From Gemmatimonadota bacterium (GTDB lineage Bacteria > Gemmatimonadota > Gemmatimonadetes > Palauibacterales > Palauibacteraceae): 64,000 bases of DNA. The stretch spans positions 3,941-67,940 of the forward strand of contig JBDHLB010000007.1 of NCBI GenBank assembly GCA_039586095.1, given 5' to 3'. Shown in pieces: positions 1 to 19,173 of the stretch (positions are counted from its first letter, which is position 1; every line of letters begins with the position of its first letter). Both the position numbers and the translations under genes were made by a program. The notes below the pieces were generated by a model, which was given only the letters and a program-made list of their open reading frames with translations, searched no databases and was not told the origin of the DNA.

Positions 1-1119
1 TTCGGTCACATCCACGAAGCGACCGAGGTCATCACGTAGCAATCGGAGGGTGTGTTCTCCCTCGCCGCGTGTCGCCGCGACGATCAGGTCTTCATCGCCG
101 TCACCGTCGAAGTCACCGACGGCGACCGCGGTTCCCCGACCGCCGGTCGGAGGCGCGAGCGCTCCGACCGGGACCGTGTCCAACGCCGCGGTCGAAGTGG
201 CATCGGAGTACCGAAGGGTCGAGAGCACGAACTCCTGCTCCTGAATCTGGAGGGAGAATTCGTGGCTGAAGGTGAGGCCCAACAGACCGACGATCTCCTC
301 CGGCGGGCCGCGCAGTTCCTGAGCCGCCGCCTGAAACGGTGTCGTGACCTCGAAGTACGCACCGAATCGAGACAGGCTCGTTCGCGCTCCGGCCAGGTCT
401 CCGCTTCGGCCCCGGTCGATCGCCTCTTCCAGAGACTCCGCTGCCGCCTCTGGAAAACCGGGTGCCTGCTGGCGCAGAGCCTCGAGCTGCTCGATCGCCG
501 GATCCGCCCTGCCGGCCGAGAGAAGACTGCGGGCCAGCTCGAGTCGCACGGCCAGGTTGGCGGGAGCCAGTTCGATGGCCCGTTCGAGGTAGCCCCGCCG
601 TTCAGAGGCGCCCTCCTCGCCGCGATGACGTTCGACATGGGTCGCGAGCGCGTAGAGCGTGCGCAGGTGTTCCGGCTCGGCAGCCAGAGAAGTCTCCAAC
701 GTGACACGAGCCGAATCCGGCTGCCCTTCGAGCTCGAAGACGCGGGCGAGGATGAGCGCCACATCCGGGTCGGTCGGTGCCAGCTCGAGCGCTCGCCGAA
801 CCTCGCGTTCCGCATCTTCCACTCGTCCCGCACGCAAGTGCACAAGCGCCAGGTTCGCGTATCCCGCGGCCTCATCGGGCACAAGGTCGATGAGACGGGT
901 GAACTCCGCCTCGGCTTCCTCGAGCCGATCCTGCTGCAGGAACGTGAGGCCGTTCGTCCGGGCCAGAAGCGCCTCACCGGCCGCGGCGCGGACTCCCTCG
1001 TCCGCCTGTCGCTCCCCACACGCCACGGCTGTCAGCGACAGCACGACCACGGAGACCGGCAGGCGCCACCCGCGTAGACGGGATCGTGTGCGCACCGTGC
1101 AGCGAATCCGACGACCCAT
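1..1119 (-). CDS. N-terminal part of a TPR-repeat plus FG-GAP/ASPIC-UnbV (CRTAC1-like) lipoprotein; gene runs off the window start
   Basis: The minus-strand frame is absent from the ORF track because it has no stop inside the window. A manual translation from the ATG at 1119..1117 gives MGRRIRCTVRTRSRLRGWRLPVSVVVLSLTAVACGE... (signal peptide plus lipobox Cys). TPR-like helical repeats follow, then a VGDFDGDGDEDLIVA FG-GAP motif. The start ATG overlaps the upstream gene's TGA (ATGA). Confidence 0.7.
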   Translation of the reverse strand, partial: MGRRIRCTVRTRSRLRGWRLPVSVVVLSLTAVACGERQADEGVRAAAGEALLARTNGLTFLQQDRLEEAEAEFTRLIDLVPDEAAGYANLALVHLRAGRVEDAEREVRRALELAPTDPDVALILARVFELEGQPDSARVTLETSLAAEPEHLRTLYALATHVERHRGEEGASERRGYLERAIELAPANLAVRLELARSLLSAGRADPAIEQLEALRQQAPGFPEAAAESLEEAIDRGRSGDLAGARTSLSRFGAYFEVTTPFQAAAQELRGPPEEIVGLLGLTFSHEFSLQIQEQEFVLSTLRYSDATSTAALDTVPVGALAPPTGGRGTAVAVGDFDGDGDEDLIVAATRGEGEHTLRLLRDDLGRFVDVTE

Positions 1120-2957
1120 CACTCCTCCTCTTGTCCACCCCTTCCAGAAGTCCCCTCGCCCTCGCGCAGGTCGAGTGTGGTCCCCGAAGGCACCGAGCCA
1201 TACAGCTCCTCGAGACCTGACGTCGGCCATCGCACGCGCACGCTGTCGGCCGAATCCAGGCTGCCGAGTCCGAACAACAGCGGGTTCGATTCCGACTGCG
1301 ACAGGTAGGAGGAGCCGGCGCGGACCATTCGGCGCTGGACGAGATCGCCGGCATAGACGGTCACGACCGCGCCGACGGCCGATCGATTCGGCGGCCGGGC
1401 GACGAGCTTCACCCGTATCCACGCCGCAGTTCGGGACGGCAGATCGTTCCGCAGCAGGCGGGGTCGCCCACCGTTCGCCGTGATGATGACATCCAGATCG
1501 CCGTCGCGATCGTAATCCGCGGTCGCGATGCCGCGGCCTACCATCGGCTCCTGGAACGACTCCCCCACCACGTCGCTCACGTCCTCGAACTGACCCTGAC
1601 CCGTGTTCTGGAAGAGCTGAGGCCTTTGCGCGAAGGTGACGTCTCGCATGACGGCGTTCACCTCCGGTTCAATGTGTCCGTTTCCGGTCACCAAGTCGAC
1701 ATAGCCGTCAGAATTCAGATCGGCGAACGCGAGCCCGAAGGTGAGGGGAAGAAGAGTCGATCGTGTGATGCGCGCGGAGCCGGCGAGGTCCTGGAACACC
1801 TGTTCGCCGATCTGCGTGTAGAGCGATACCGGCTCGTTGGAGAAGTTGCCGATCGCGATCGAGAGACGTCCCTGCCCTGTCACGTCCGCGACGTCCACAC
1901 CCATTCCGGCACGAGCCCGACCGAACTCGTCGAACGCCACCCCCGCCGCGACGGCGACGTCCGTAAAGGCACCCGTTCCGTCGTTGAGATAGAGGAAGTT
2001 CTGATAGGTATCGTTCGCGACCACGATATCGGGCCACCCGTCCTGGTTGAAATCCTCGACGGCGACGCCGAGTGACTTCCCCTCCGGCCGATAGACCCCG
2101 GCCGTGCGCGTCATGTCCTCGAAGTCCCGCCCGTCGCGATTCCGGTACAGCCGGCAGCTTTCTCCATCGTACTGCTGTGGCGTCGCGTACGACTTGTTCG
2201 TGCCGTCCAGAGTAGTGAACAGGTCGGTCTTCGGAGTCCAGCGCACGTAGTTGCATACGAAGAGGTCCAGCCAGCCGTCTCGATCGGTATCCACCCACGC
2301 CGCACCGGTGGACCAGGACGGTGGATCGCCCGGCATCCCGCTGTTGCCATGTGCTCCGGTCCGCATCGTCACGTCGGTGAAGCGTCCGCCGTCATTGCGG
2401 AGCAGGCGGTTCGTACCGACGGCTGTCAGGTAGAGGTCGGGGTCCCCGTCGGCATCGTAATCGGCTGCCGTGACGCCCATCCCATACAGGGGCAGCGCGA
2501 GACCGGCCTCCTCCGTCACATCCTCGAATCGCCCGTTGCCCAGGTTCCGATAGAGGCGCGAGTAAGGGGTCGCCCCGGTTCCCCGTCGTCCCGGCCATGG
2601 CGCGCCGTTGACCAGCAGAAGATCGGGCCAGCCGTCGGTGTCGTAATCGAAGAACGCCGCCCCGCTGCCCATCGTCTCGGGCATCCATTTCTCGCCGAAG
2701 GCACCGGTCTCGTGGACGAACGTGATGCCCGATGCGGTCGTGACGTCCTCGAAGCGCATGGCCGTCTCGACTTCCCTTCCCGGAAGCGTCGCATACGTGG
2801 GCCGCGCGTACGCGGGTTCGGTCGTCGGCGGCTCTGCATCGTCGCAGCCTGTTGCGAAAGCCGGGAGGAGGGAAAGCAGCACCACCGGGACGGAGACGGC
2901 AACCGGCGACGGGAGTGAGCCCCCCGGGCCGAGCGAGCCATGGAGATCGTTATTCAC
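1119..2957 (-). CDS. ASPIC/UnbV-type FG-GAP repeat lipoprotein (CRTAC1 family)
   Basis: 612-aa ORF with a lipoprotein signal (LLPAFATGC). It carries multiple FG-GAP-like DxDxDG motifs (DYDTDGWPDLLL, DYDADGDPDLYL, DTDRDGWLDLFV, DFNQDGWPDIVV, DLNSDGYVDLV, DYDRDGDLDVII) and a C-terminal UnbV/ASPIC-like region. Its start lies 8 bp inside the upstream cytochrome gene. Confidence 0.8.
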   Translation of the reverse strand: MNNDLHGSLGPGGSLPSPVAVSVPVVLLSLLPAFATGCDDAEPPTTEPAYARPTYATLPGREVETAMRFEDVTTASGITFVHETGAFGEKWMPETMGSGAAFFDYDTDGWPDLLLVNGAPWPGRRGTGATPYSRLYRNLGNGRFEDVTEEAGLALPLYGMGVTAADYDADGDPDLYLTAVGTNRLLRNDGGRFTDVTMRTGAHGNSGMPGDPPSWSTGAAWVDTDRDGWLDLFVCNYVRWTPKTDLFTTLDGTNKSYATPQQYDGESCRLYRNRDGRDFEDMTRTAGVYRPEGKSLGVAVEDFNQDGWPDIVVANDTYQNFLYLNDGTGAFTDVAVAAGVAFDEFGRARAGMGVDVADVTGQGRLSIAIGNFSNEPVSLYTQIGEQVFQDLAGSARITRSTLLPLTFGLAFADLNSDGYVDLVTGNGHIEPEVNAVMRDVTFAQRPQLFQNTGQGQFEDVSDVVGESFQEPMVGRGIATADYDRDGDLDVIITANGGRPRLLRNDLPSRTAAWIRVKLVARPPNRSAVGAVVTVYAGDLVQRRMVRAGSSYLSQSESNPLLFGLGSLDSADSVRVRWPTSGLEELYGSVPSGTTLDLREGEGTSGRGGQEEE

Positions 2958-5940
2958 CGGCGACTCTCTCGAGTCGGTGCGTGTGGATCGGCTGCGCCAT
3001 CAGGTTCACGCCGGGGTGTGCTCGACGGTACGCGCCCGCAACGGCCTGGGCCGCCTCGTCGATGCGGTACCGTTCGTACGCGGCCTCCGCGGCAGCGGCT
3101 TCGACCTCCCGTCCGAGGGCCCGGAGGACCAGCATGCGGTGATAGTGCGCGACTCGATCCTCCGGATCTATCCTCAGGACGCGGTCCAGCGAGACCAGGG
3201 CCTCTTCGTACTGCCGGTGCAGGTACAGCGTGCGGCCGAGATTTCGCCACGCCGCCCGATCCTCGGGGAAAACCTCGAGGACTCTCCGGAACGCGAGAAT
3301 CGCGTCCTCGTACCGTCCGTCTTCCTGCAGCACCTGCCCCCACACCCAGGCGGCACGTGGATCGCCGGGCCGGATGCCCTCTGCCTCTTGGAGAAGGTCG
3401 TATGCGGCATTCAGGTTGCCGTCCCGCAGAGCGGTTCGAGCCATGTTGAGCGGGCCGTCGGTCCGGTCCGGATGCGCGGCACGCACTCGGTCGAACGCAC
3501 GCATTGCGAGCCTCGTGTTGCCTTCGAGAAGCAGCGCGATGCCGTAGTCGTTGTAACGAGTCCAGTCCTCGTCCCTAGCCGCGGCCTTCTTCGCACTCCC
3601 GTCGGTCCCCGTTTCGCCGTCTGTCGACGGATCAGCGAGCGCTCCCGAGGCGATGGCGAACGACGCTTCGCCCGTGGCGATCTCGGTAACGGGGAGGTCC
3701 GGCACGTCCGCGAAGCGCCGGAACCCCTCCGGATTGGCTGCATACGCGAACTCGGTGAACGCGCGGTCGAACTTGCGCCACAGCAGGCGCGCGCGAACGG
3801 TCAGGTTTCCTCCCGCCGCGCGCTCCGGCACGACGAACTCGTAGTGCGCCACGTCTGCCGTTCCCGGGCCGATCACGTTCGAGGCCGCCGTCACGTAGAT
3901 GTCCTGCCCGTTGCGACGCTGGATTCGCCGGCCCTCGCGGTCCAGCAGCACGACACCGTACACGTGCGCGAGCGAGTCCAGGCGCCGGTTCGGGGCGATC
4001 GAGCCGCTCTTCGCGAGGATGCGACCGTCGCCTTCAAGCAGCTCTACCTCGAGCCATCCCTGGTTCGAGTCGTTCGTCCCGCCTGGAAACGTGTGGCCGA
4101 CGGCGCGATTGCGAACAACCACATCCACGACGACCCGCTCGCCTGGCTCCAGAGTCCGCCTCTCGCCATCCAATGCCAGAGGGGTCCGGTCGTCGCCGCG
4201 GCGGATCGCGAACACGTCGACGCTGAGGGCTCCGTCACGCAGGAACCTCTCGGTGTCGCGCAACGTGGCCGAGTCGCCGCGCACGTACGGGAGCGCCGTG
4301 TTCGCGGCCAGAAACCGGTGCGATCGCACGAGCCCGTCTTCGGCTGCCAGATCTCCCCGTGGCGCGGGCTCCAGCGGCATGTGGCAGTCCTGGCAGACGC
4401 GGCGCGATTCCGGCAGGTAGAACGTGCGCGCCGCATTCAGCGAGATGCCGCTGTCATGCCAGTTGTCGTACTCGTCTTGCCCGCGCAGCCAGCGGTACTC
4501 GTTCACCGGCTCGGTCAGACGGACCTTGTGGCAGGTCGCACAGAACTCCGGCTCGCTGTGCAGCGGCTTCAGCAGGCGTCTCTTGTGCACCGTGGGCTTC
4601 GCCTTGAGGGCCATGTCGTGAACGAAGGCCCTCCAGCTGCCGGCGGGTGCGTCCGCGAACAAGTACGGATCATCTCCAGTGTCGTCGATGTTGTAGTTCG
4701 CGTTGCCGGTCCTCCCGTGCAGCCGATCGATGGCATGGCAGGCGAGGCAGGTAAGCCCGGCTTGCGCTTCCCGGCTCACACGATCGATCGCCTTGTCGAT
4801 CAGCCCCGTGAACAGGAGCGCCGGGTCGTGACAGCCCGCGCACCACTTGCTCTTGACGGGGCCCGATTCGAGCGGCGCCTCCGGGTTCGCCTTCTGATGG
4901 AGACGGATCCACTCGTTGGGCGGGCTGCCGTCTGCTCGCAGGCTCCGCACGCTCGCCTCGTAGAACGGATTGTTGAACGACGCGAAGCGGTGAGCCGAGG
5001 CCGACCATTGCTCGACGGTGTCGGGGTGGCAGCGCACACAGCCTTCCGCGCCGATCGGGGCTTCGGAGGCGAAGCCCTCAGTCCGGACCTCGTCGATCGG
5101 GCTCGGCGTCGTCTTGCTGCCGTCGCCCGGTGTGAAAACGCGCGCGGGCACCAGACCGCCCGACGTCGTGGTCGCCGGTGACGGGAAGAAGAGGCTCTGT
5201 GGGGGTACGAAGTCGGCGGCGACAAAGGACGAGTCCGAGAACTCTTCTGGCGACCGATCAGCACCGCTCGGACCCGTTCCAAGGGTCGCATCCAGAGCGA
5301 TCTGCGCCTCCGGCCCCTTCCGCGTATCGTTGCCACCGGCGACGTGCGCGGCCACAAGCAATACGCCCGCGCCAGCGACGGCCAGCGCGTAGCGACCGAT
5401 CGAAGACCGGGCCGGGCGTGCCAGACTGACGAGTCGGTGCGCCAGATAGCCAAGCGGGATAAGCGCGGCGCAGGCAACGTGTAGCCACCAGGCCCACCGG
5501 TTCTCCTGGCTGGCCGCTTCCGTCAGAATGAAAAGCCCCGTGACGACGAGGACGACCGCCACGCCGACGAACAGGGATCCCGTGAGGATCGAGCTACCGT
5601 GGCGACGTCGCCAGACCCGCGGCAGGTGGGCCAGCACAAAGACCAGGACCAACGCCGCGGCAAGGAGTCCGATTCCCGTATGCGCCAGAAGAATGGCCTG
5701 AAACACGCTCGGCAGGGAGGTCGATCCGGCTGCCAACAGCGTCCAGCCCAGCCCGTCCGCCAGCCGATTGAGAAGCAGATAGAGCGCGCTGGCAAGCATG
5801 AAGCCTGCCAGCACCACCGTCACGCGCAGCAACATGCGCACGCGCGGCGGCAGCAGTGAAGGAAGATTCGGCCGGCCGCTGGGTCTCTCAGGCATGATAC
5901 CGTCTACCCGAACCGGAGCGGCCTGTGCGCCAGGCCCCAC
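2950..5940 (-). CDS. membrane-anchored pentaheme c-type cytochrome with C-terminal TPR domain
   Basis: 996-aa ORF. The N-terminal ~230 aa has 5-6 hydrophobic helices. Five CxxCH heme-binding motifs are present (CVRCH, CAGCH, CLACH, CATCH, CQDCH). The C-terminal ~250 aa is TPR-like. The true start may be an internal Met (MPERPSG or MLLRVTV). Confidence 0.75.
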   Translation of the reverse strand: MGPGAQAAPVRVDGIMPERPSGRPNLPSLLPPRVRMLLRVTVVLAGFMLASALYLLLNRLADGLGWTLLAAGSTSLPSVFQAILLAHTGIGLLAAALVLVFVLAHLPRVWRRRHGSSILTGSLFVGVAVVLVVTGLFILTEAASQENRWAWWLHVACAALIPLGYLAHRLVSLARPARSSIGRYALAVAGAGVLLVAAHVAGGNDTRKGPEAQIALDATLGTGPSGADRSPEEFSDSSFVAADFVPPQSLFFPSPATTTSGGLVPARVFTPGDGSKTTPSPIDEVRTEGFASEAPIGAEGCVRCHPDTVEQWSASAHRFASFNNPFYEASVRSLRADGSPPNEWIRLHQKANPEAPLESGPVKSKWCAGCHDPALLFTGLIDKAIDRVSREAQAGLTCLACHAIDRLHGRTGNANYNIDDTGDDPYLFADAPAGSWRAFVHDMALKAKPTVHKRRLLKPLHSEPEFCATCHKVRLTEPVNEYRWLRGQDEYDNWHDSGISLNAARTFYLPESRRVCQDCHMPLEPAPRGDLAAEDGLVRSHRFLAANTALPYVRGDSATLRDTERFLRDGALSVDVFAIRRGDDRTPLALDGERRTLEPGERVVVDVVVRNRAVGHTFPGGTNDSNQGWLEVELLEGDGRILAKSGSIAPNRRLDSLAHVYGVVLLDREGRRIQRRNGQDIYVTAASNVIGPGTADVAHYEFVVPERAAGGNLTVRARLLWRKFDRAFTEFAYAANPEGFRRFADVPDLPVTEIATGEASFAIASGALADPSTDGETGTDGSAKKAAARDEDWTRYNDYGIALLLEGNTRLAMRAFDRVRAAHPDRTDGPLNMARTALRDGNLNAAYDLLQEAEGIRPGDPRAAWVWGQVLQEDGRYEDAILAFRRVLEVFPEDRAAWRNLGRTLYLHRQYEEALVSLDRVLRIDPEDRVAHYHRMLVLRALGREVEAAAAEAAYERYRIDEAAQAVAGAYRRAHPGVNLMAQPIHTHRLERVAGE

Positions 5941-5949
5941 ACCACGAGA

Positions 5950-6498
5950 CTACGAGTCCCCTTCCTCGATGTCGGCGGTCCAGCGTACGTCCACCGCCCC
6001 ACGCAGGGACTGCGCGGTCGGACACTTCGAGGCATGCCTTTCGAGCGCTCGCTCCACCACCTCTCGCGAGCCAGCGGGAATGCGAAGTCGATATCGGACG
6101 TGAATCTCCGTCAGGACCGGTAGCCCGTCGCGAACCTCATTGATGCCTTCCACGTCGGTGACGATGTCGGCGGGGTCGAGCCGGATCTCGCGCACCTCCA
6201 GTGCGCCGTTGAGCGTTCCGAGCATTCACCCGCCGGCCGCCGCCACGAGATAGTCCACCGGCAGAGGCAGGTCCTCGGCCTCGATCCGGTAGTGCTCCTT
6301 GATGATTCCGTGCACGCCCATATCGAAGTTCGTTCCGTCGTCCAGCGTGGCCAGCCTGTGCACGCCGGACACCTTCTCCACTCGGGCCCGTGCCGTGTAG
6401 AACGCGTCCGTCACTTCGCCCCCCTCTTCTCGTGGATGCCATCCCGATGCCGACGCCGCTTGGCCGGCTCGCGTGCAGAATATATGGGGTGCGGGCAT
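5950..6498 (-). CDS. OsmC/Ohr-family peroxiredoxin with an in-frame UGA (candidate selenocysteine) at the peroxidatic-Cys position
   Basis: Two adjacent ORFs (6226..6498 and 5950..6225) share one frame and are separated only by a TGA at 6226..6228. The joined protein reads ...PVDYLVAAAGG-U-MLGTLNGALEV...ERHASKCPTAQSLRG. This aligns with E. coli OsmC motif 1 (LIGAAHAACFSMALSL) and motif 2 (KAGCPVSQVLK), placing the UGA exactly at the first catalytic Cys. A hairpin lies 20 nt downstream. Confidence 0.6.
6190..6206 (-). promoter_or_regulatory. candidate bacterial SECIS hairpin downstream of the in-frame UGA
   Basis: The mRNA sequence 5'-GCGCAC-UGGAG-GUGCGC-3' forms a perfect 6-bp stem with a 5-nt loop containing GG. 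It begins 20 nt 3' of the UGA, so the loop sits about 26-30 nt downstream, within the usual bSECIS window. Confidence 0.4.
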
Positions 6499-6584
6499 GA
6501 ACGGGCATGAAAAAGAGGGACGGCGAACCGTCCCTCTTTCAATGCCTTATTGTGAGCCTGGTGGAGCCCAGGCCGCGTCTGGCC

Positions 6585-7757
6585 CTACTCCTCGGCTTCC
6601 TCCAGCTCGCCGCTGCGGCGCTTGCGCAGTCGCGCGCCTGCGTAACCCGCGAGACCCAGCCCGAACAGTGTCGTGCTGATGGGCTCGGGCACCTCGGTCA
6701 TGGGAGGCTCTTCACCCTGTTCGCCCCAGACGGGATCTTCCCACCCGTCGTCGCCACCCTCGTTGCCGTTGTTGCCGTTGTTGCCGCTGTTCCCGGAATT
6801 GCCGCTGTTCCCGGAATTGCCGCTGTTCCCGGAATTGCCGCTGTTCCCGGAGTTGCCGCTGTTCCCGGAGTTGCCGTTGTTGCCGGAGTTGCCGCTGTTC
6901 CCGGAATTGCCGCTGTTCCCGGAGTTGCCGCTGTTCCCGGAGTTGCCGTTGTTGCCGGAGTTGCCGCTGTTCCCGGAGTTGCCGCTGTTCCCGGAATTGC
7001 CGCTGTTCCCGGAGTTTCCGCTGTCGCCACCTTCCTCGTTGCCCCCGGTGGTACCGCCCTCGTTTCCACCCTGCGAGCCGCCCTGATTGCCGCCTGCATC
7101 GCCGCCCTCGCTGCCGCCACCGCTGGTCTCGGTGCCGCCTTCGCTTCCTTCATCCTCTGGGAAGCTCCGCACGACTTCCGGCTCATCCCCGCCGGGGAGG
7201 GCGACGGCCACCGCCGTGGGAACGGCAAGCAGGAACAGCGCAGCCACAGGAGCATCTCGATCGCACTCCTCGTCCCGCTCCGCCCGGTCGGAGCCGCTCG
7301 GGTCGTCCAGACCCGGGCGGTCTTCGTCGCACTGGACAAGGCCGGGATCCAGGGCAACAGCCGCGATGCCGTCCAGCCACTCCTCGGTCACATCGACGCA
7401 CCCGATGCCCGATTCCGGCTGGCATGTCATTCCTGAGGCGCTCAGAAGAACCTGAACATCCGCCGTTGGCCGTGCGGCGCTCGCGGCATCCGTGGACGCC
7501 GTCGGCATCGCCCGATCACGCGAAGCCTCCAGCCCGGTCGCGTTCGGCACGAATATCGACAGCTTCTCGCCGACGACGTCCACCTCGACACTGGCACAAC
7601 TCTCGTTCCAACCGCCCTGACACGCTGACTCAGAGGCGACAGCACTGCCGGCGCCTACGACCAACAACCAGGCAGAGCCGCCGGTGAGGAGCAGCATCCC
7701 GAGCATCGCGAGGCCCAGATAGGCCTGACGTCTCGATCGCGACCAAACCGTACTCAT
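6585..7757 (-). CDS. secreted PEP-CTERM-anchored protein with Gly/Asn/Ser low-complexity repeat
   Basis: N-terminal signal peptide (LAMLGMLLLTGGSAWLLVVGAGSAVA) and a Cys-rich N-terminal domain. A long (GNS)n tract follows. The C-terminus has VPEP, a hydrophobic helix and RKRRS, which is a PEP-CTERM sorting signal. Confidence 0.7.
   Translation of the reverse strand: MSTVWSRSRRQAYLGLAMLGMLLLTGGSAWLLVVGAGSAVASESACQGGWNESCASVEVDVVGEKLSIFVPNATGLEASRDRAMPTASTDAASAARPTADVQVLLSASGMTCQPESGIGCVDVTEEWLDGIAAVALDPGLVQCDEDRPGLDDPSGSDRAERDEECDRDAPVAALFLLAVPTAVAVALPGGDEPEVVRSFPEDEGSEGGTETSGGGSEGGDAGGNQGGSQGGNEGGTTGGNEEGGDSGNSGNSGNSGNSGNSGNSGNSGNNGNSGNSGNSGNSGNSGNSGNSGNNGNSGNSGNSGNSGNSGNSGNSGNSGNSGNSGNNGNNGNEGGDDGWEDPVWGEQGEEPPMTEVPEPISTTLFGLGLAGYAGARLRKRRSGELEEAEE
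6762..7032. repeat. about 15 near-perfect copies of an 18-bp tandem repeat (ggaRttgccgYtgttccc) with a 72-bp higher-order periodicity, encoding (GNSGNS)n
   Basis: Directly visible in the sequence between 6762 and 7032. The units differ only at 1-2 wobble or Asn/Ser positions. Confidence 0.85.
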
Positions 7758-11058: not shown

Positions 11059-11508
11059 ATGACGACGGGCACTCAGGCGCAGGGGCGATACGCCACATTA
11101 CGGTGTCAGTTTTGCCTGACGCTGAACCGAATCGACCTGGATCGGGCGGCGGAGCGGCCCAAGTGCGGTGACTGCGGCCGGCCAATGCTCCTGGATCGAC
11201 CGGTCAAGGTCACCGCCGATGAGTTCGATCGGGTGATCGCCGACTCCGACGTGCCGGTACTGGTGGACTTCTATGCGGATTGGTGCGGCCCGTGCAAGGT
11301 GATGGCTCCGATTCTCGACGAACTCGCGCGCGAGCGGCTGGGCCATCTGCTGGTCGCCAAGCTGGACACGGATGCCAACCCGGATGTCTCCCGGCGCTTC
11401 GGCATCCGGGGAATCCCCACGTTGATCCTCTTCCGCGACGGAGACGAGACCGGACGCGAGGTCGGCGCCGTTCCGAGAAGCAGCATCGAGGCCCTGATCG
11501 AGCGCTAG
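11059..11508 (+). CDS. trxC: thioredoxin with N-terminal zinc-ribbon (Trx2-type)
   Basis: CxxC...CxxC zinc finger (CQFC...CGDC) followed by the WCGPC active site. Confidence 0.85.
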   Translation: MTTGTQAQGRYATLRCQFCLTLNRIDLDRAAERPKCGDCGRPMLLDRPVKVTADEFDRVIADSDVPVLVDFYADWCGPCKVMAPILDELARERLGHLLVAKLDTDANPDVSRRFGIRGIPTLILFRDGDETGREVGAVPRSSIEALIER

Positions 11509-11704: not shown

Positions 11705-13120
11705 CTACTGGCGCGCTGCGGTCTCGTCGATCGGAATCGGGTAGGCCGCGTTCACGACGTGCGTCGGTATGTCGAGCGGCAGCTCATCGAGCTTGTTGTA
11801 GCGCCGCATGTCGATCCAGCGGTGTCCACCCTCGTACAGCAACGAGTAACGCTTCTCGTACAGAAGCTGGTCCATTGCCTGATCGGCGTCGGTGAGCGTG
11901 ACCGGCGGTAGACCCCCCGCCCGCTGACGAACGACGTTGATGTCCGTCTGGGCCGCCCCCAGGTTGCCGAGCCCGATGTTCGCCTCGGCGCGGAGCAGGA
12001 TCAGTTCCTCGTTCCGGATGATCGGAATCGGCGTCGTGCTGGTCGAGTAGATGTCGAATCCGATGTCACACGTCGGAAACGCCGACTGCGGCGTGCACAG
12101 GACCCCGTTGTACGAGCGCGAAGCGATCTCGCGGGTCTTGGCCACGAAACGATCGTCGGGCGTCCCATCCAGCTTCAACTCCACATCCTCACCGAGCGAC
12201 GGGTGCGCTCGTAGATTCGGATCACCGCCCGGCTGGAAGAGCTCGTTCGTGCGGTCGCCCGATCCGGTGCTGAAGGTGTGGTACACTCCGTTATCTAGGG
12301 ACCCCGCCGCCCTCAGAAAGGATTCGCCCAGAGCGGTGAGCGCGATCGAGTAATCGCCCATGTAGACGGCCACCCGCGCCCGAATCCCCCGATTGAACTG
12401 CCGGAACGTCGCGGGAGTGTCGAACCCGCTGAAGCCGCTCGACAGCCGGAAGGGGAACGCCGTGGCGCCCTGCAGGTGTCCGTTGGCTTCCTCGAGCAAC
12501 TGTACGATGTGATCGAACACCTGCTCCTTGGAGGCGTTCGGCGCGGGCGTGCGCGGGTCCTCCGCGATCGTGATCGGGCACCCGCAGTTGGTGTCCCGCG
12601 TGTTCACGAGCGACAGGAACTCCAGCGCCTGCATCGTCTTGGCGAAGCCGCGCAACGCTTCCTTCTCGCCTGCAGAAACCTCGGCATCGTCCACCTCATC
12701 CGTTCCATCGAGCAGAATGTCCGCCAGCTTGATGTTGGCGTACGGCTCGGCCCAGTAGTTGCCTCCGAAGGCGGGGCTGGAGGCCTGTAGTGATCCGGCC
12801 AGCATCTCGCTCTCGAAGCGCGGGTCGGCCACGTCGTGGTTGTAGGACTCGCGACCCAGAATCCCCAACATCGAAACCAGGTCGTTCGGGCCCAGATGAT
12901 ACTGTCGGTATCCGATGATTAGCCCCTGCGCGGTCGTCGCGAGTCCGGCCCGGTCTGGATTCGACGTCAGCTCCTCGAGATCACCGAAGTTCGAGTTCGG
13001 CGACGTGAGGTTCTGACAGCCTGCCAGCCCGACCAGAACCGCGGCCGCGAACAGCGGCCCAACGATTCTTTTCAACATGATCTCCGCTCCATTCCTTGGA
13101 TTCGTTCGCTCTGTCTTCAT
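11705..13120 (-). CDS. SusD/RagB-family nutrient-binding outer-membrane lipoprotein
   Basis: 471 aa with a lipoprotein signal (VLVGLAGCQNL) and SusD-like TPR-ish helical content. It lies 15 bp downstream of the SusC-like gene in the classic tandem arrangement. Confidence 0.8.
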   Translation of the reverse strand: MKTERTNPRNGAEIMLKRIVGPLFAAAVLVGLAGCQNLTSPNSNFGDLEELTSNPDRAGLATTAQGLIIGYRQYHLGPNDLVSMLGILGRESYNHDVADPRFESEMLAGSLQASSPAFGGNYWAEPYANIKLADILLDGTDEVDDAEVSAGEKEALRGFAKTMQALEFLSLVNTRDTNCGCPITIAEDPRTPAPNASKEQVFDHIVQLLEEANGHLQGATAFPFRLSSGFSGFDTPATFRQFNRGIRARVAVYMGDYSIALTALGESFLRAAGSLDNGVYHTFSTGSGDRTNELFQPGGDPNLRAHPSLGEDVELKLDGTPDDRFVAKTREIASRSYNGVLCTPQSAFPTCDIGFDIYSTSTTPIPIIRNEELILLRAEANIGLGNLGAAQTDINVVRQRAGGLPPVTLTDADQAMDQLLYEKRYSLLYEGGHRWIDMRRYNKLDELPLDIPTHVVNAAYPIPIDETAARQ

Positions 13121-13135
13121 CGTCGTTCCCTTCGA

Positions 13136-16028
13136 TCAGAGGCGGAGATCGAAGCCGAACCAGAAGCTGCGGCTCGGTGGGAACGGAGCCACATCGATCG
13201 AGCGTCCGACCTGCTGCGTTCCGAAGTTGCTCACCTCGGGATCCAGACCACGGTAGTTCGTCACCGTGAACAGGTTGCGGCCGCTCGCTCTGAGCCGGAT
13301 CTGATCGAAGAAGCCGTTGAAGATCCGCGACGTCACGCTCTCGGGAAGCGTGTAGCTGAGCGCGATCTCGCGTGCCTTGAAGAACGAAGCGCGTTGCGTG
13401 TACGGAAGCGCCCACCCGTTCACGAACCCGGCCAGGCGTTCGGCACCGCTGCAGTCCGGGCGGCACGACTCGGTCGAGAAATCCGAGCTGGCGTTGAAGA
13501 AATCGTTCGGATCCCCAAAGTCGGCGCTGTTGACCGCCCCGTCGTACAGCAGCTCGGTCAGGTTCACGACCGACTGTCCCTGCCGCCACTCGAAGAGGGT
13601 GTAGATTTGGAAGTCGCCCAGCTGGAAGTCGTTCGCGAAGTTCATGTTGAAGTCGGGATCGGAATTCCCCGTCGAGACGCGTGACCTCACTCCGATTCAT
13701 GAAGAAGCTGGTGCGCGAGTTCCAGGTGAAGCCGCTTCGGACGATCGGCGTGACGCCCAGCGCGGCCTCGAAACCGTAGTTGCGCAGCTCCCCGCCGTTG
13801 AAGATCACGTCGGCGAAACCGGTCGACGGAGCGACGGTGGCCTCGATGATGAGGTTATCGACGTTCTGCAGGTAACCGGTCAGCTCGAGGCTGGCCCGTC
13901 CGTCGAAAGCGAGGATGTCGACGCCGCCTTCGAACTCGGTCATACGCTCGGGCTCCAGAGCCTCGCCGCCTCCCACCGTGCCCTCGATCTGAAAGCCGCC
14001 GATGCCCTCGATGTTGTTGTCCAGCTCGAGGCTGGTGAACTTCTGGCACCCTTCGCGCGGGTCACAGGTGGGCGGGTTGCCCGTCTGACCGACCGCGGCC
14101 CGCAGCTTCACCTCGTCCACGAAACCGCCCACATCGGGGAAACGGTACGAGGCAGCCCCCTTCGGGAAGACGAACAGCTTGGTCGGATCGCCGTTGGCGG
14201 AGCTTTGGTCGAACCGGACCATCCCCGTAAGGAGAAGCCGGTTGTCCAGCAGCAGGACTTCCTCCTGTACGAAGAATCCGAAGTCCTCGACGTTGGCTCG
14301 ATTCTCTCGAATCTGCACCTCGGTGGCCGCATCAGGCTTGTTCTTGCCGCCGGTCAGATCCCGTCCGACCAAACGCGAGATCGTGAGGCTCACGTCGTCG
14401 TAGTTGAAGCCGAAGGATGTCGTTGCCGTGAGCGCGCTCGACGGCGTCCACCGCCAGATCCCGTTCACGTTCACGTTGAAGTTCAGGTTGTTTGTGTTGC
14501 TGAGCAGCGAGGTACCGGGCCGCCCGTCAAAGCTCTCATAGTGGAGCGCCGGGGGAGAGAAGATCCGGTTTTCCTGCGTGAAGAAGTCGACCCCTCCGGT
14601 CGCCACGATGTTCACGCGGTGCGTGCCGTTGTCGATCAGCCCCACATCCACGTTCCCCGAGGCCAGGAGCCTCCAGACATCCTCATCGTTTTCCAGCAGT
14701 GCGGCGGTCTGCAGCGGGTTGCTCCCGTTCCCCACGAACGGGTTCACGGGGAACGTCCCGTCCGGCTGTTGTCCCAGATCGATGAAGTTCGGCGTGCCCG
14801 GGAACACCATGTACCAGCTGGTCTGGCTATTGTCGTTGTTGGTCAGACCGCGGCTGGCGACGGTGTGTATGACGTTGGTGTTGAGTGAGATCTCGGTCAT
14901 GCCGAGTCGGGTGCGAAGGTTCGCCCGCGCCGCCTGCCGCTCGAAGCCGGTGTTGTCGACGATGCCCTCGTCGTTCTTCCACACGGCGGAGCCGAAGTAC
15001 TGCACGCCCTCGGCCGTTCCGCCGCTCACGCTGCTGGACAGGTCCCACGAGAGGGCGTTGCGTCCTGCCAAGCCCGCTTCGTGATCGAACGTCACGCCGG
15101 GTTGAAAGAAGCTGCGCGCCGTCTCTCCGAAGGTGCCGACGGCCTCCTCGACGTCCCCGAAGGTGCGAAATCCGAGCGTGTTGCGGAGATCGAAGTAGCC
15201 GCCCAGGGCGCTCACGCGTACCTGTGGTGGCCCGACCTGACCGCGCTTCGTGGTGATGATCACCACGCCGTTGCTGGCCTTCACACCGTAGATGGCGGCC
15301 GCCGACGCACCCTTCAAGATCTCGATGCTCTCGATGTCATCCGGGTTGATGTCGGAGATCCGATTCGTGAGCGCGTCCTGCTCCAGCGACGGGTTGGAGC
15401 CGCCCGCGGCATCCGTGATCTCGTTCTGGTTGCTCGGAATCGCGATGTTGCTCACCACGACACCGTCGATCACGTAGAGCGGCTCCGCAGCGGCGTTCAC
15501 CGAGGAGGACCCTCGAATGTTCAGCTGCAGGCCGCCGCCGGGCGCCCCCGTGTTGCTGGCGATCACCGCCCCGGCGACGCGGCCCTGCAGCGCCTTGTCC
15601 AGAGTCTGCTGCGGCACCGCCTCGAGCTCCTCACCCTGGATCGACTCCACCGGGTTCGGAGCGTTGACCCGCCGGGTCTCCGTAGCCCGACCGGTGACGA
15701 CCAGCTCCTCCACCCGCAGGTAGTCGATCTCGAGGTTTACCGTCACCGTGTTCTGGCCCGCGGGAACCGCCACTTCGAGTGACTGATACCCGATCCGCTG
15801 GACCACGAGCATCACGTCGCCCGCGGGCACGTTTTCGAGTGCGAACGTTCCGTTCTGGCTCCCGACCGTTCCGATGGCCATTCCGCGCACTGCGACCTGC
15901 GGGAACTCCACGGGCTCGCCCGACTGAGCGTCGGTCACGGTCCCGCGGATCGTTCGCTCCTGCGCGAACAGCCCTCCGGTGGAGAAGAGCAAGAACAACG
16001 AGATCAGCGCACAAAGCCTGTACCTCAT
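13136..16028 (-). CDS. SusC/RagA-type TonB-linked outer-membrane receptor, with an apparent frameshift near 13661-13670
   Basis: N-terminal signal peptide, a carboxypeptidase-regulatory-like domain (RTIRGTVTDAQSGEPVEFPQV), a TonB plug and a long barrel. The authentic barrel C-terminus (...NYRGLDPEVSNFG...SFWFGFDLRL) is in a different frame (ORF 13136..13690). The 1015-aa ORF 12981..16028 continues as Arg-rich junk after ...FFMNRSEVTRLDGEF. The frame change sits at a homopolymer (cccc at 13667-13670). Confidence 0.7.
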
Positions 16029-16513
16029 GTGAACCTGCCTTGCCGTGGATACACGTCTCCTGGTTGTAAGACGTCCGCCGCATTTAGGCCGACGTCCGCG
16101 ACCAGTCTTTGCTGTTCTTATAGAGAGGCCGGAGAGCGGCCGGAGAATTCATGCAAGAGGTCTGGATCCTGGGGGGCACCCAGGCGCGGCAGCAGCCGTC
16201 ATGAGGCGACCGCGTTACCGCACGAGAAAAGACCGCTTCGCCTCGCGTGCTTCGAGAGGCCATGCGCTTCTTCCCCTTCAAACACACGTGTCTGGCCACC
16301 GCCGCCCGACCGTTCCTGCCGGGTTTCCCCACGGGCCGTGGTTCAGGACGTGAACGAATTTGGGCGAACGGGGGTTCCACTGCAAGCAAATGCGACGTTT
16401 AGGAAGCCCAGCGCGTGCGGATCACGCTGTCACAAAAAGAGTTCGGTGAGGGCAACGTTCAGCGGACGGAGGGTGGGACGGGGAAGATTCGGGGTGAAGA
16501 CGCGAGCGGATCG

Positions 16514-17386
16514 ATGTTGATGCGGGTGCTGATAGAGGCCGGGATCGGGCAAACAGACGACGGCAAGGATCTGATCACGGCCGCCCGAGCCGCCCTGCGA
16601 GGGGGACAGGCTGCGCTCCCGTTCTACGGAGACGCGACGGTCGATGTACGGTCCAAGGGAGCCGGCGGCCCCGTCACGGAGGCCGACCACGCCTCGAACG
16701 AAGCCATCCTGAAGCTTCTCGAACGGGAACGACCGGAGGACCCCGTTCTCAGCGAAGAATCGCCTTCCCCTTCGCCCGCCCGGCCCGCGGACCGGTTGTG
16801 GATCGTGGATCCCCTGGACGGCACGAAGGAGTTCCTGGCCGGGAACGGCGAGTTCAGCGTCATGGTGGGTCTGTCTCGGGATGGCGCTGCGGTCCTGGGC
16901 GCCGTGTTCGAGCCCGATATCGGGCGTCTGTACCTGGGCGCGATCGGCCTCGGCGCGTGGCGGGTCGACCGTCCGCTCGACGCCCCGTCGATCCGACCGC
17001 TCGATGCGGCCCGCACGGCGGTCGATCGCCTGCGCTTCGTCCGCTCCCGCTCACACCCCTCAGAACGACTGCGACGCCTGGAGGCTCAGCTCGGCGACTT
17101 CACACCGGTGGTGTCGGGATCTGTGGGGGTCAAGTGTGCTCTCATCACGAACGGGGAAGCCGATCTGTATGTGCATCCGGTGCCCTACCTGAAGGAGTGG
17201 GATACGTGCGCCCCGGAAGCCGTGGTTCGGGCGGCGGGCGGTCGGGTGACGGACTGTGCGGGCGGGCCGCTCGCGTACGGAAAGCCGCAGCCCGTGCAGC
17301 CAGGCGGGATCTTCGCCGCCACTCACGACGTGTGGTCCCTCGTGGCACCGATTGTGCTGCGAGAAACGCGGGACATGTTCGAGTGA
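16514..17386 (+). CDS. cysQ: 3'(2'),5'-bisphosphate nucleotidase CysQ (inositol monophosphatase family)
   Basis: IMPase-family motifs EESP...WIVDPLDGTKEF and the CysQ-type C-terminus. The start was chosen at MLMRVLIEAG; the ORF extends upstream to 16415. Confidence 0.7.
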   Translation: MLMRVLIEAGIGQTDDGKDLITAARAALRGGQAALPFYGDATVDVRSKGAGGPVTEADHASNEAILKLLERERPEDPVLSEESPSPSPARPADRLWIVDPLDGTKEFLAGNGEFSVMVGLSRDGAAVLGAVFEPDIGRLYLGAIGLGAWRVDRPLDAPSIRPLDAARTAVDRLRFVRSRSHPSERLRRLEAQLGDFTPVVSGSVGVKCALITNGEADLYVHPVPYLKEWDTCAPEAVVRAAGGRVTDCAGGPLAYGKPQPVQPGGIFAATHDVWSLVAPIVLRETRDMFE

Positions 17387-17435
17387 TCCACGTATCTTGC
17401 GGGATCCGATCGCGAGGGTCGGGGAGGCGTAGCGA

Positions 17436-17924
17436 ATGGAGCGAGGTGTGGGTGACCTGAGATCCGACAACGTCGTCTGGCAGACGGATCCAGTCAGTCG
17501 TGAAGAGCGTGAGGAGCGCCGAGGTCATCGCGGTGTCGTTCTGTGGCTCACCGGCCTCTCGGCGAGCGGCAAGAGCACCCTCGCCATGGAAGCGGAGAAG
17601 CGCCTCTTCGAGCAGGGCTACTTCAGCTACGTGCTGGACGGCGACAACGTACGACACGGACTCAACGGCGATCTGGGCTTTTCTCCGGAGGATCGGGTCG
17701 AGAACATCCGGCGCGTGGGAGAGGTGGCCAAGCTGTTCGCGGAGGCCGGCGCGATCGTCCTGACCGCATTCATCTCACCCCCCTACGAGCCACCGAGCGA
17801 CCCTGAACTGATCGTCGAAACGAACGTCCACGACGTGGACGAATGTGTGGGACGCATCATCGGATATCTGAGCGATCACGGGTACGTCCGCGGCGTCGAC
17901 CCGCTGCGTGCGCTCTCGGGCTGA
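17436..17924 (+). CDS. cysC: adenylyl-sulfate (APS) kinase homolog with an internal ~50-aa deletion
   Basis: The N-terminal 115 aa align almost residue-for-residue with E. coli CysC ([19 protein letters not shown]...DGDNVRHGL...[12 protein letters not shown]...VLTAFISP). The segment corresponding to E. coli HRAERQ...FIEVFVDTPL...DPKGLYKKARAGE...FTGID is absent. Confidence 0.7.
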
Positions 17925-17931
17925 GCCTACC

Positions 17932-19173
17932 ATGGGTTCGACGCGGGCTGCGTCCTCGGCCACACGCCCGGTGACGTCCCATCCGACCGACTCGAACAAG
18001 CCCGAGTCGAGCACCGTGCCAGGGCCGATCGCGCCGTACGGGGGCCGGCTCGTGGACCGCACGGTGCGACCCGACAGGCGACGGCAACTCGTCGAGCGGG
18101 CGGGGTCGCTGCCGGAGCTGCGGCTCGATGGCCGAGTTCTTAGTGACCTGTACCTGCTGTCGGTTGGAGCGTTCTCTCCCCTTGTCGGCTTCATGAGCCG
18201 TGAGACGTATGTGTCGGTCGTCGAGGAGATGTCGCTCCCGATGGGACTTCCGTGGACGATTCCTGTCGTGTTGCCTGTGGGGGCGGATGAGGTGACGGGC
18301 TTCGGACCCGGGGACGAAGTGGCCCTGCTCGCTCCGAGCGGAGAGCTGGCCGGCACGCTCGAGGTGAGCGAGGTGTTTGCGCGCGACGTGGAGCGGGAGG
18401 CCGAGCGGGTGTACGGCACGACCGACTCCGCTCATCCGGGCGTGGCCGCGATACAGGCTCAGGGGACGCATTGTCTATCCGGCGCCGTGCACTATGCGTA
18501 CACGAACGACATCAGCGGCTTTCCGGCCGATCATCTCACGCCCGAAGCCACTCGACGACACTTCGAGGAGGCCGGCTGGCGTTCGGTGGTGGCGTTCCAG
18601 ACCCGCAATCCGATCCACCGGGCGCACGAATATTTGCAGAAGTGTGCTCTGGAGATCGTGGAGGGGCTTCTCGTCCACCCGCTCGTGGGGGAAACGAAGT
18701 CGGACGACGTGCCCGCCGAGGTGCGTATGGAGTGCTATCGGGTCCTCCTGGAGCGCTACTTCCCCGGCGATCGCGTCCTGCTGTCGGTTCTGCCGGCCGC
18801 CATGCGCTACGCGGGCCCGCGCGAGGCAGTGTTTCACGCGATCATGCGCCGCAACTATGGCTGCACGCACCTTATCGTGGGCCGGGACCACGCTGGCGTC
18901 GGTGACTTCTACGGCACCTACGACGCCCAGCGAATCTTCGACGAAATCGACGCGGATGCGCTCGGCATCCGCCCGCTCAACTTCGAGCACGCGTTCTATT
19001 GCCGACTCACCCAGCAGATGGCGACCTCCAAGACGTCGCCCGCCGATCCCGACCAGCGGGTCTTTCTCTCGGGCACCAAGCTGCGCGAAATGCTCCGCCG
19101 TGGTGAGCGGCCCCCCGCCGAGTTCACCCGGCCCGAGGTCGCGAACATCCTCCTGCAGGCGTACCGGGATTGA
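17932..19173 (+). CDS. sat: sulfate adenylyltransferase (ATP sulfurylase)
   Basis: Motifs QTRNPIHRAHE and GRDHAGVG and the full ATP-sulfurylase domain. It is contiguous with cysC. Confidence 0.85.
   Translation: MGSTRAASSATRPVTSHPTDSNKPESSTVPGPIAPYGGRLVDRTVRPDRRRQLVERAGSLPELRLDGRVLSDLYLLSVGAFSPLVGFMSRETYVSVVEEMSLPMGLPWTIPVVLPVGADEVTGFGPGDEVALLAPSGELAGTLEVSEVFARDVEREAERVYGTTDSAHPGVAAIQAQGTHCLSGAVHYAYTNDISGFPADHLTPEATRRHFEEAGWRSVVAFQTRNPIHRAHEYLQKCALEIVEGLLVHPLVGETKSDDVPAEVRMECYRVLLERYFPGDRVLLSVLPAAMRYAGPREAVFHAIMRRNYGCTHLIVGRDHAGVGDFYGTYDAQRIFDEIDADALGIRPLNFEHAFYCRLTQQMATSKTSPADPDQRVFLSGTKLREMLRRGERPPAEFTRPEVANILLQAYRD

Follow-up and report, generated by a model that had tools for sequence, protein, structure and literature searches.

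The gene described here lies on contig JBDHLB010000007.1 of a Gemmatimonadota bacterium (family Palauibacteraceae, assembly GCA_039586095.1). The window, that is the whole stretch of DNA analysed, comprises 64,000 nucleotides (nt; positions 3,941 to 67,940 of the contig). Scanning it for open reading frames (ORFs) revealed an uninterrupted frame of 996 amino acids (aa) on the minus strand with a GTG start (Table 1). The predicted product combines a polytopic membrane domain with five heme attachment motifs, a beta-sandwich and a tetratricopeptide repeat (TPR) domain, and the gene is followed by that of a putative lipoprotein. An initial annotation of the DNA had listed five to six transmembrane (TM) helices, five CxxCH motifs and about 250 aa of TPR repeats in this protein. 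All three modules were found again; the helices number five instead of six, and the TPR domain measures about 200 aa. A beta-sandwich of 220 aa, which separates the TPR domain from the hemes, had been overlooked.

Table 1. Features of the cytochrome locus, numbered from the first letter of the window.
Feature	Position	Strand	Evidence
Whole gene, putative membrane b/c-type cytochrome with TPR domain, 996 aa	2950..5940	minus	ORF, motif, homologue evidence
Five-helix membrane domain, aa 32-202	5335..5847	minus	hydropathy, AlphaFold2, conservation
Invariant histidines H87, H105, H154, H168	5680-5682, 5626-5628, 5479-5481, 5437-5439	minus	conservation
Near-invariant H199	5344-5346	minus	conservation
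Periplasmic linker, aa 203-290, conserved motif FVPPxSxFFPSxATTTSGG	5071..5334	minus	alignment
Pentaheme c domain, aa 291-545	4306..5070	minus	motifs, PDB profile, conservation
CxxCH sites	5026-5040, 4828-4842, 4735-4749, 4528-4542, 4381-4395	minus	motif scan
Beta-sandwich (immunoglobulin-like) domain, aa 546-765, invariant motif GHTFPGGTNDSN	3646..4305	minus	AlphaFold2, alignment
H616 of the sandwich	4093-4095	minus	conservation
Variable linker, low model confidence, aa 766-787	3580..3645	minus	alignment, AlphaFold2
Periplasmic TPR domain, aa 788-985, about 12 helices, proposed partner dock	2986..3579	minus	Pfam, AlphaFold2, Foldseek
Partner gene, CRTAC1-like lipoprotein, 612 aa, FG-GAP repeats and UnbV_ASPIC	1119..2957	minus	Pfam, tblastn, PDB profile
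Third gene, clipped by the window edge, lipoprotein, TPR then FG-GAP repeats	1..1119	minus	ORF, domain analysis

Of the 8000 candidates scored in a homologue search of 5.8 billion proteins, 838 were matches. The top 120 clusters, with lengths of 876-1099 aa, share 53-100% identity with the query over 86-99% of its sequence, and more than 100 clusters can be aligned along 94-99% of its length. Since these homologues are collinear across the whole ORF, two genes split by a missed start are ruled out, and the single gene proposed initially could be confirmed. All named members among them carry the names "tetratricopeptide repeat protein", "TadD" or "hypothetical". Translation probably begins at M16 (ATG at 5895) rather than at the GTG or at M36, the start chosen in the public annotation (P0001). 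This is suggested by a conserved LPSLL motif that precedes M36 in the homologue alignment.

The heme motifs CVRCH (aa 301), CAGCH (367), CLACH (398), CATCH (467) and CQDCH (516) contain ten of the eleven cysteines of the protein. From its composition 0.0035 such motifs would be expected by chance, compared to five observed, and all five are retained without exception in 32 close and 15 distant relatives. The family-invariant residues H317, H452, H541, H616 and M521, none of which is a proximal ligand, are candidates for distal ligation. As these five candidates match the five distal positions, they suggest hemes that are mostly or wholly six-coordinate and of the electron-transfer type, with H616 contributed by the sandwich. 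In the AlphaFold2 model the sandwich exhibits beta strands over aa 572-763, with a predicted local distance difference test score (pLDDT) of mostly 74-93 except in the loop of the motif GHTFPGG, which is invariant in the family.

For this part of the protein a distant relative was found, and the heme module is not without precedent. A profile of aa 240-790 matches the low-potential cytochrome c552 of Thermochromatium tepidum (PDB 5ZE8) in three collinear pieces with an overall E of 0.0016. Shared features are the pattern IGAExCxxCHxDIVxQW at heme 1, CQxCHMP at heme 5 and GHxxPxG in the sandwich, where GHTFPGG is aligned to PHAMPTG. The NCBIfam model for ExtKL (NF040886) was matched by all 13 relatives tested with a best E of 1.9e-8, though far under its cut-off of 250 bits, and the query itself reached 21-23 bits. 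These matches support a distant relationship of heme module and sandwich to the c552/ExtKL family. In the literature, c552, ExtKL and Gsu2801 are grouped as a pentaheme family with an immunoglobulin (Ig)-like domain after the hemes and related to archaeal cytochrome nanowires; no clear function has been assigned to c552 (PMC11976967). Its members consist of signal peptide, pentaheme and Ig-like domain, without membrane or TPR domain (PMC11976967). The protein studied here likewise has five CxxCH motifs in a compact domain, of 220 aa compared to the roughly 230 aa estimated initially, followed by the Ig-like sandwich. In contrast to this family, it possesses five TM helices with four invariant histidines, a C-terminal TPR domain and no cleavable signal.

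Structural parameters of the membrane domain point towards more than a means of attachment. Hydropathy and two AlphaFold2 models agree on helices at aa 32-64, 78-110, 115-140, 145-172 and 178-201. Across 15 full-length representatives, down to 30% identity, 76 positions are invariant, and H87, H105, H154, H168 and R169 are the only polar residues among those in the membrane domain. In the first-stage AlphaFold2 model helices 2 and 4 each carry one histidine nine residues away from their periplasmic end (H87 and H154) and another four to five residues away from their cytoplasmic end (H105 and H168). In the core of cytochrome b/b6, whose N-terminus is inside, helix B and helix D each provide two histidine ligands towards opposite faces of the membrane. 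The present protein is also oriented N-in with two histidines on helix 2 (H87/H105) and two on helix 4 (H154/H168). Because four invariant TM histidines are placed at matched depths on these two helices, we infer heme b binding, and the domain is probably a diheme cytochrome b with the candidate pairs H87+H154 and H105+H168. The polytopic segment, which the initial annotation had treated as an anchor, would then probably be a redox module itself.

Modelled alone, the membrane domain reached a pLDDT of 90.2 and a predicted template modelling score of 0.84 (AlphaFold2). Among the PDB structures that Foldseek ranks closest to it, heme-b membrane proteins stand out (STEAP2, STEAP4, cytochrome b6, NOX5, the hydrogenase-1 cytochrome b HyaC, NOX2 and b561). 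Sub-threshold matches to PF01292 or DUF4405 were obtained for two of the 15 diverse members (best E 4.2e-6). A search of 1.84 billion representative proteins with a membrane-domain profile matched 231 proteins. All matches of at least 900 aa with a complete membrane domain contain exactly five CxxCH motifs, so that the domain is specific to this architecture.

The topology is N-in/C-out. In 32 aligned sequences lysine and arginine residues together average 4.8, 4.2 and 3.1 in the cytoplasmic segments (N-terminus, loops 2-3 and 4-5), compared to 0.3 and 0.8 in the periplasmic loops 1-2 and 3-4. From the five helices and this positive-inside charge pattern it follows that everything after aa 202 is periplasmic. 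Attachment of c-type hemes takes place in the periplasm, and the cytoplasmic location of the CxxCH region that would have refuted the initial annotation was thus not found.

The C-terminal domain is matched by several Pfam TPR models above their cut-offs, among them TPR_19 with 51 bits and TPR_16 with 48 bits. AlphaFold2 predicts 12 helices over aa 783-982 with a pLDDT of about 90. In a Foldseek search of the PDB with the full-length model all 50 matches listed are TPR proteins, the other domains not being represented.

A candidate for the binding partner of this domain is encoded directly downstream. The partner gene overlaps the stop codon of the cytochrome gene by 8 nt, and its product, in which Pfam recognizes six FG-GAP_3 repeats and one UnbV_ASPIC domain, is related to human CRTAC1 (PDB 9ETN, E 8e-18). 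DxDxDG calcium loops are present. By tblastn, a same-strand orthologue was found directly downstream of the cytochrome gene in 68 of 70 evaluable non-redundant species loci; the automated count was 66, and L032 and L081, missed through gene overlap, were added by hand. The orthologues score 486-1000 bits with 48-84% identity and start within about 1 kb downstream, the median projected gap being 1 nt. This pairing is near-obligate. Eight residues are invariant across the 70 orthologues (H82, K90, M92, E94, R349, M352, H428 and R475), and they might form a metal or substrate site. In hydrazine-synthase-like operons, CRTAC1-family genes have been reported to lie between genes of heme proteins (PMC12758564).

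The ATG of a third gene overlaps the TGA of the partner gene by 1 nt. Its full-length equivalents in L001 and L002 comprise 1069-1215 aa with TPR, FG-GAP_3 and UnbV_ASPIC domains. When the flanking ORFs of 81 loci were clustered, the third gene was detected in 21-24 loci, and no widely conserved neighbour appeared beyond it and the partner. Other recurrent clusters were rejected, as their ORFs lie across the three conserved genes on one strand or the other, which is common in high-GC DNA. Partner and third protein carry lipoprotein signals, hence they share the compartment of the TPR domain. Together with the TPR-FG-GAP-ASPIC fusions in the same operon, these periplasm-facing lipoproteins make the TPR domain a plausible dock for the propeller, and the fusions offer Rosetta-stone support for a link between TPR and partner. 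In L002 (KSB1), the cassette is found within an array of at least four further FG-GAP/UnbV_ASPIC genes (18-7675 and 13058-19057; products of 1215-1233 aa, some of them TPR-fused). This array suggests that the partner family has expanded around the cytochrome gene.

Taking sequence and structural models together, we consider it rather probable that the protein is a membrane electron wire, with two b hemes followed by five c hemes, which docks the propeller lipoprotein through its TPR domain. It would be an inner-membrane protein of four modules, namely the diheme-b membrane domain, the pentaheme c domain, the Ig-like sandwich with H616 and the TPR domain. One b heme would be held close to the periplasmic face by H87 and H154, the other close to the cytoplasmic face by H105 and H168. 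Through the two b hemes and then the five c hemes, electrons would be exchanged between the periplasm and either the quinone pool or the cytoplasmic side. The calcium-binding FG-GAP/ASPIC propeller lipoprotein would be kept by the TPR domain where the wire ends, and cytochrome and partner would thus act as one functional unit. The core of the idea put forward in the initial annotation, an electron module in the membrane that recruits partners via TPR, is kept in this proposal and gains the candidate partner and the TPR fusions; electron entry, the direction of flow suggested there, is one possibility. More tentatively, the two genes could constitute an unrecognized and widespread periplasmic redox system, in which a new diheme-b domain feeds a pentaheme wire that drives, or is driven by, catalysis at the propeller; we regard this extension as possible and rather doubtful.

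Several observations weigh against the proposed wire. Neither Pfam nor NCBIfam contains a family matching this domain of the query, Foldseek finds no significant counterpart for it in the PDB (best E 0.11, TM-score about 0.46), and searches of PDB profiles with narrow and broad profiles gave nothing credible. The matches to cytochrome b6 have E values of 0.8-2.4 and TM-scores of 0.28-0.45 (for the match with E 0.8, a TM-score of 0.37 and a root-mean-square deviation of 13 Å), and Pfam reports no cytochrome b. Comparison of the membrane profile by hhalign with HyaC, CybB and a CybB alignment of E. coli resulted in probabilities of at most 2%; the homologue search seeded with CybB for a PF01292 profile gave only enterobacterial sequences with 74-99% identity. 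The two histidines are spaced by 14 residues on helix 4 and by 18 on helix 2, the latter exceeding the 13-14 residues usual in cytochromes b. The heme domain, modelled without hemes, reached a pLDDT of only 35-57, too low for heme geometry. The partner sequence shows neither heme motif nor cysteine cluster and is not obviously redox-active. Finally, aerobic heterotrophs among the carriers, such as Lutimonas vermicola, give no hint of a substrate.

The missing similarity to any heme-b family in Pfam, PDB profiles, Foldseek and hhalign could also be read differently. The membrane domain might be a cofactor-free anchor or a module for assembly or oligomerization, so that the protein would be a tethered periplasmic pentaheme cytochrome fed by other periplasmic carriers, and the conserved histidines would have a structural role, handle protons or bind metal. 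That c552 and ExtKL, which are soluble relatives, function without a membrane domain speaks for this reading. A single helix would, however, be enough for anchoring. Furthermore, four histidines and R169 are the sole polar invariants of the membrane at 30% identity, with the histidines paired at matched depths on alternate helices, and in matches of at least 900 aa the whole membrane domain never occurs apart from the pentaheme module. We therefore regard a mere anchor as unlikely.

The nearest functional analogue of the proposed wire is CbcL (GSU0274) of Geobacter, a quinone oxidoreductase in which a diheme-b part is fused to nine c hemes (PMC9129911). Both unite in one polypeptide a polytopic membrane part, for which two b hemes are expected, and a periplasmic multiheme c part, and by analogy they probably work in the same mode. 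CbcL differs in its six HydC/FdnI-type helices, its nine c hemes and the absence of a TPR domain, whereas the present protein has five helices, of which helices 2 and 4 bear both histidine pairs, and no homology of its membrane domain to PF01292 proteins could be detected. This bc-type fusion resembling CbcL, together with the kinship of the heme module to ExtKL and archaeal cytochrome nanowires, would also fit an inner-membrane entry to extracellular electron transfer of the CbcL/ImcH kind, the propeller linking it to insoluble acceptors as an adaptor in the outer membrane or at the surface. That the partner is a lipoprotein would be in accordance with such a function, as would the Pfam model of MtrC/MtrF domain II/IV (PF22113), which matches aa 362-524 above its cut-off (32.8 versus 30 bits). 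The likeness to MtrC/OmcA is limited to this domain level: those are decaheme, four-domain lipoproteins with an MtrAB-type porin, whereas the present protein has five hemes and a polytopic N-terminus, and its gene has no conserved porin neighbour. TIGR03507 was matched weakly by five of 13 relatives. Around the 81 loci neither a conserved porin nor a further multiheme gene was found, the partner has no heme motif, and aerobic marine Flavobacteriaceae as well as sponge symbionts are among the hosts. A role in extracellular electron transfer thus seems improbable to us.

Other membrane-bound systems are more remote from the proposed b/c wire. NapC, NirT, NrfH and CymA are likewise membrane-bound multiheme c proteins linking the quinone pool to periplasmic partners. 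They differ by a single TM helix and four hemes, compared to five of each in the present protein. The initial annotation had already set it apart from NapC/NrfH, in agreement with 22-25 bits for the NrfH model TIGR03153 (cut-off 134) and the absence of PF03264 in the query. MsrQ is a six-helix heme-b membrane protein without c hemes or TPR, which passes electrons from quinol to the adjacently encoded periplasmic molybdoenzyme MsrP. The resemblance to MsrQ-MsrP is one of logic only; STEAP and NOX, which share the MsrQ fold, are among the top Foldseek matches of the membrane domain.

A function in the biogenesis of cytochrome c, as a chaperone factor, was considered as well. The TPR domain would bind apocytochromes as CcmI, CycH or NrfG do, and a tryptophan-rich loop and histidines would handle heme as in CcsA/CcmF. 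This idea draws on a weak match to the Pfam model TPR_CcmH_CycH (33.1 bits) and on a WAWW-H motif at the periplasmic end of helix 4. The match remains below its cut-off of 42 and is one among many generic TPR matches. The motif lacks the aspartate of a WWD motif and is reduced to [YW]-x-x-H in distant members, so that heme handling of the CcsA/CcmF type by this loop was rejected. Moreover, the protein itself is a fully conserved pentaheme cytochrome, and no ccm, ccs or nrf genes recur in the neighbourhood of the 81 loci. With these findings a biogenesis factor is very improbable.

Relatives of the cytochrome were confirmed at no fewer than 441 sites in about eight phyla by scanning one genome per GTDB species. 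The best 80 of these at least 441 loci belong to Gemmatimonadota, Latescibacterota, KSB1, Calditrichota, Marinimicrobia, Bacteroidota, Rhodothermota (Rhodothermaceae) and Planctomycetota, and the loci with the partner gene downstream stem from the same phyla. Carriers include the sponge symbionts Ca. Palauibacter (Gemmatimonadota) and the cultured Lutimonas vermicola (Bacteroidota); the closest species-level relative among the matches listed is a metagenome-assembled genome of Gemmatimonadota with 82% identity. The architecture had been called unusual at the outset. This applies insofar as it is undescribed, our literature searches having found no description of it or of the gene pairing, but not in the sense of rarity, with at least 441 species carrying it.

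The search with the membrane-domain profile further revealed a second clade at about 30% identity (P0216, P0192, P0199, P0238, P0265 and P0266). It keeps the four-part layout of a four-histidine membrane domain, five CxxCH motifs, a sandwich with IGHHFSQGTTDSN and C-terminal helical repeats. Since so diverged a clade has the same architecture, the fusion is ancient and not a recent, lineage-specific event.

The superfamily of hemes plus sandwich, of which the protein is a distant member, and the fusion of b- and c-type parts as a design are already known. New are the membrane domain, which belongs to no described family, the built-in periplasmic TPR domain and the near-obligate pairing with a CRTAC1-like lipoprotein. 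Fused b/c membrane cytochromes are branch points of respiratory chains towards periplasmic or extracellular chemistry, and few types are known. If the two genes do form the periplasmic redox system outlined above as the more tentative reading, the FG-GAP/ASPIC/UnbV (CRTAC1) family, which is very large in bacteria, would gain its first biochemical function, and a new fold family of membrane cytochromes b would be defined. Should the b-heme prediction hold, a new type of membrane cytochrome b would be added, and the built-in TPR dock would represent a new way to recruit a redox partner. Among the carriers are sponge symbionts and groups that are abundant in marine and sediment habitats, and the protein is annotated merely as "TPR protein". 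The pairing with the partner also offers a testable handle on a large protein family without known function in bacteria.

Directly upstream of the cytochrome gene, an OsmC-like gene (5950-6498, minus strand) ends 9 nt before the GTG. It contains an in-frame TGA at 6226-6228 (…LVAAAGG-TGA-MLGTLNGAL…). The read-through product matches the NCBIfam model for OsmC-related (seleno)proteins across the TGA with an E of 3.7e-7, below the cut-off. In 13 other Gemmatimonadota loci the TGA is kept at the same position; in three of these the OsmC-like gene is also located directly upstream of the cytochrome gene. A conserved hairpin follows 22 nt downstream of the TGA (GGCGCAC-UGG-AGUGCGC), and base changes in L023 preserve its pairing. 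Due to the conserved position and the preserved pairing, the TGA is very probably a selenocysteine codon and the gene not a pseudogene.

Further upstream, a gene at 6585-7757 (minus strand) codes for a protein of 390 aa in which (S/N)GN tripeptides are repeated over a long stretch (…SGNSGNSGNSGN…) and whose C-terminus bears a sorting signal of PEP-CTERM-like type (VPEPISTTLFGLGLAGYAGARLRKRR). On the opposite strand, long spurious ORFs arise from the repeat. Two more regions were judged by eye. At 11059-11508 (plus strand) a putative thioredoxin with an N-terminal CxxC…CxxC zinc ribbon and a WCGPC motif is encoded, and at 11705-16028 (minus strand) a putative SusD-like lipoprotein adjoins an ORF of 1015 aa, which may be its TonB-dependent receptor.

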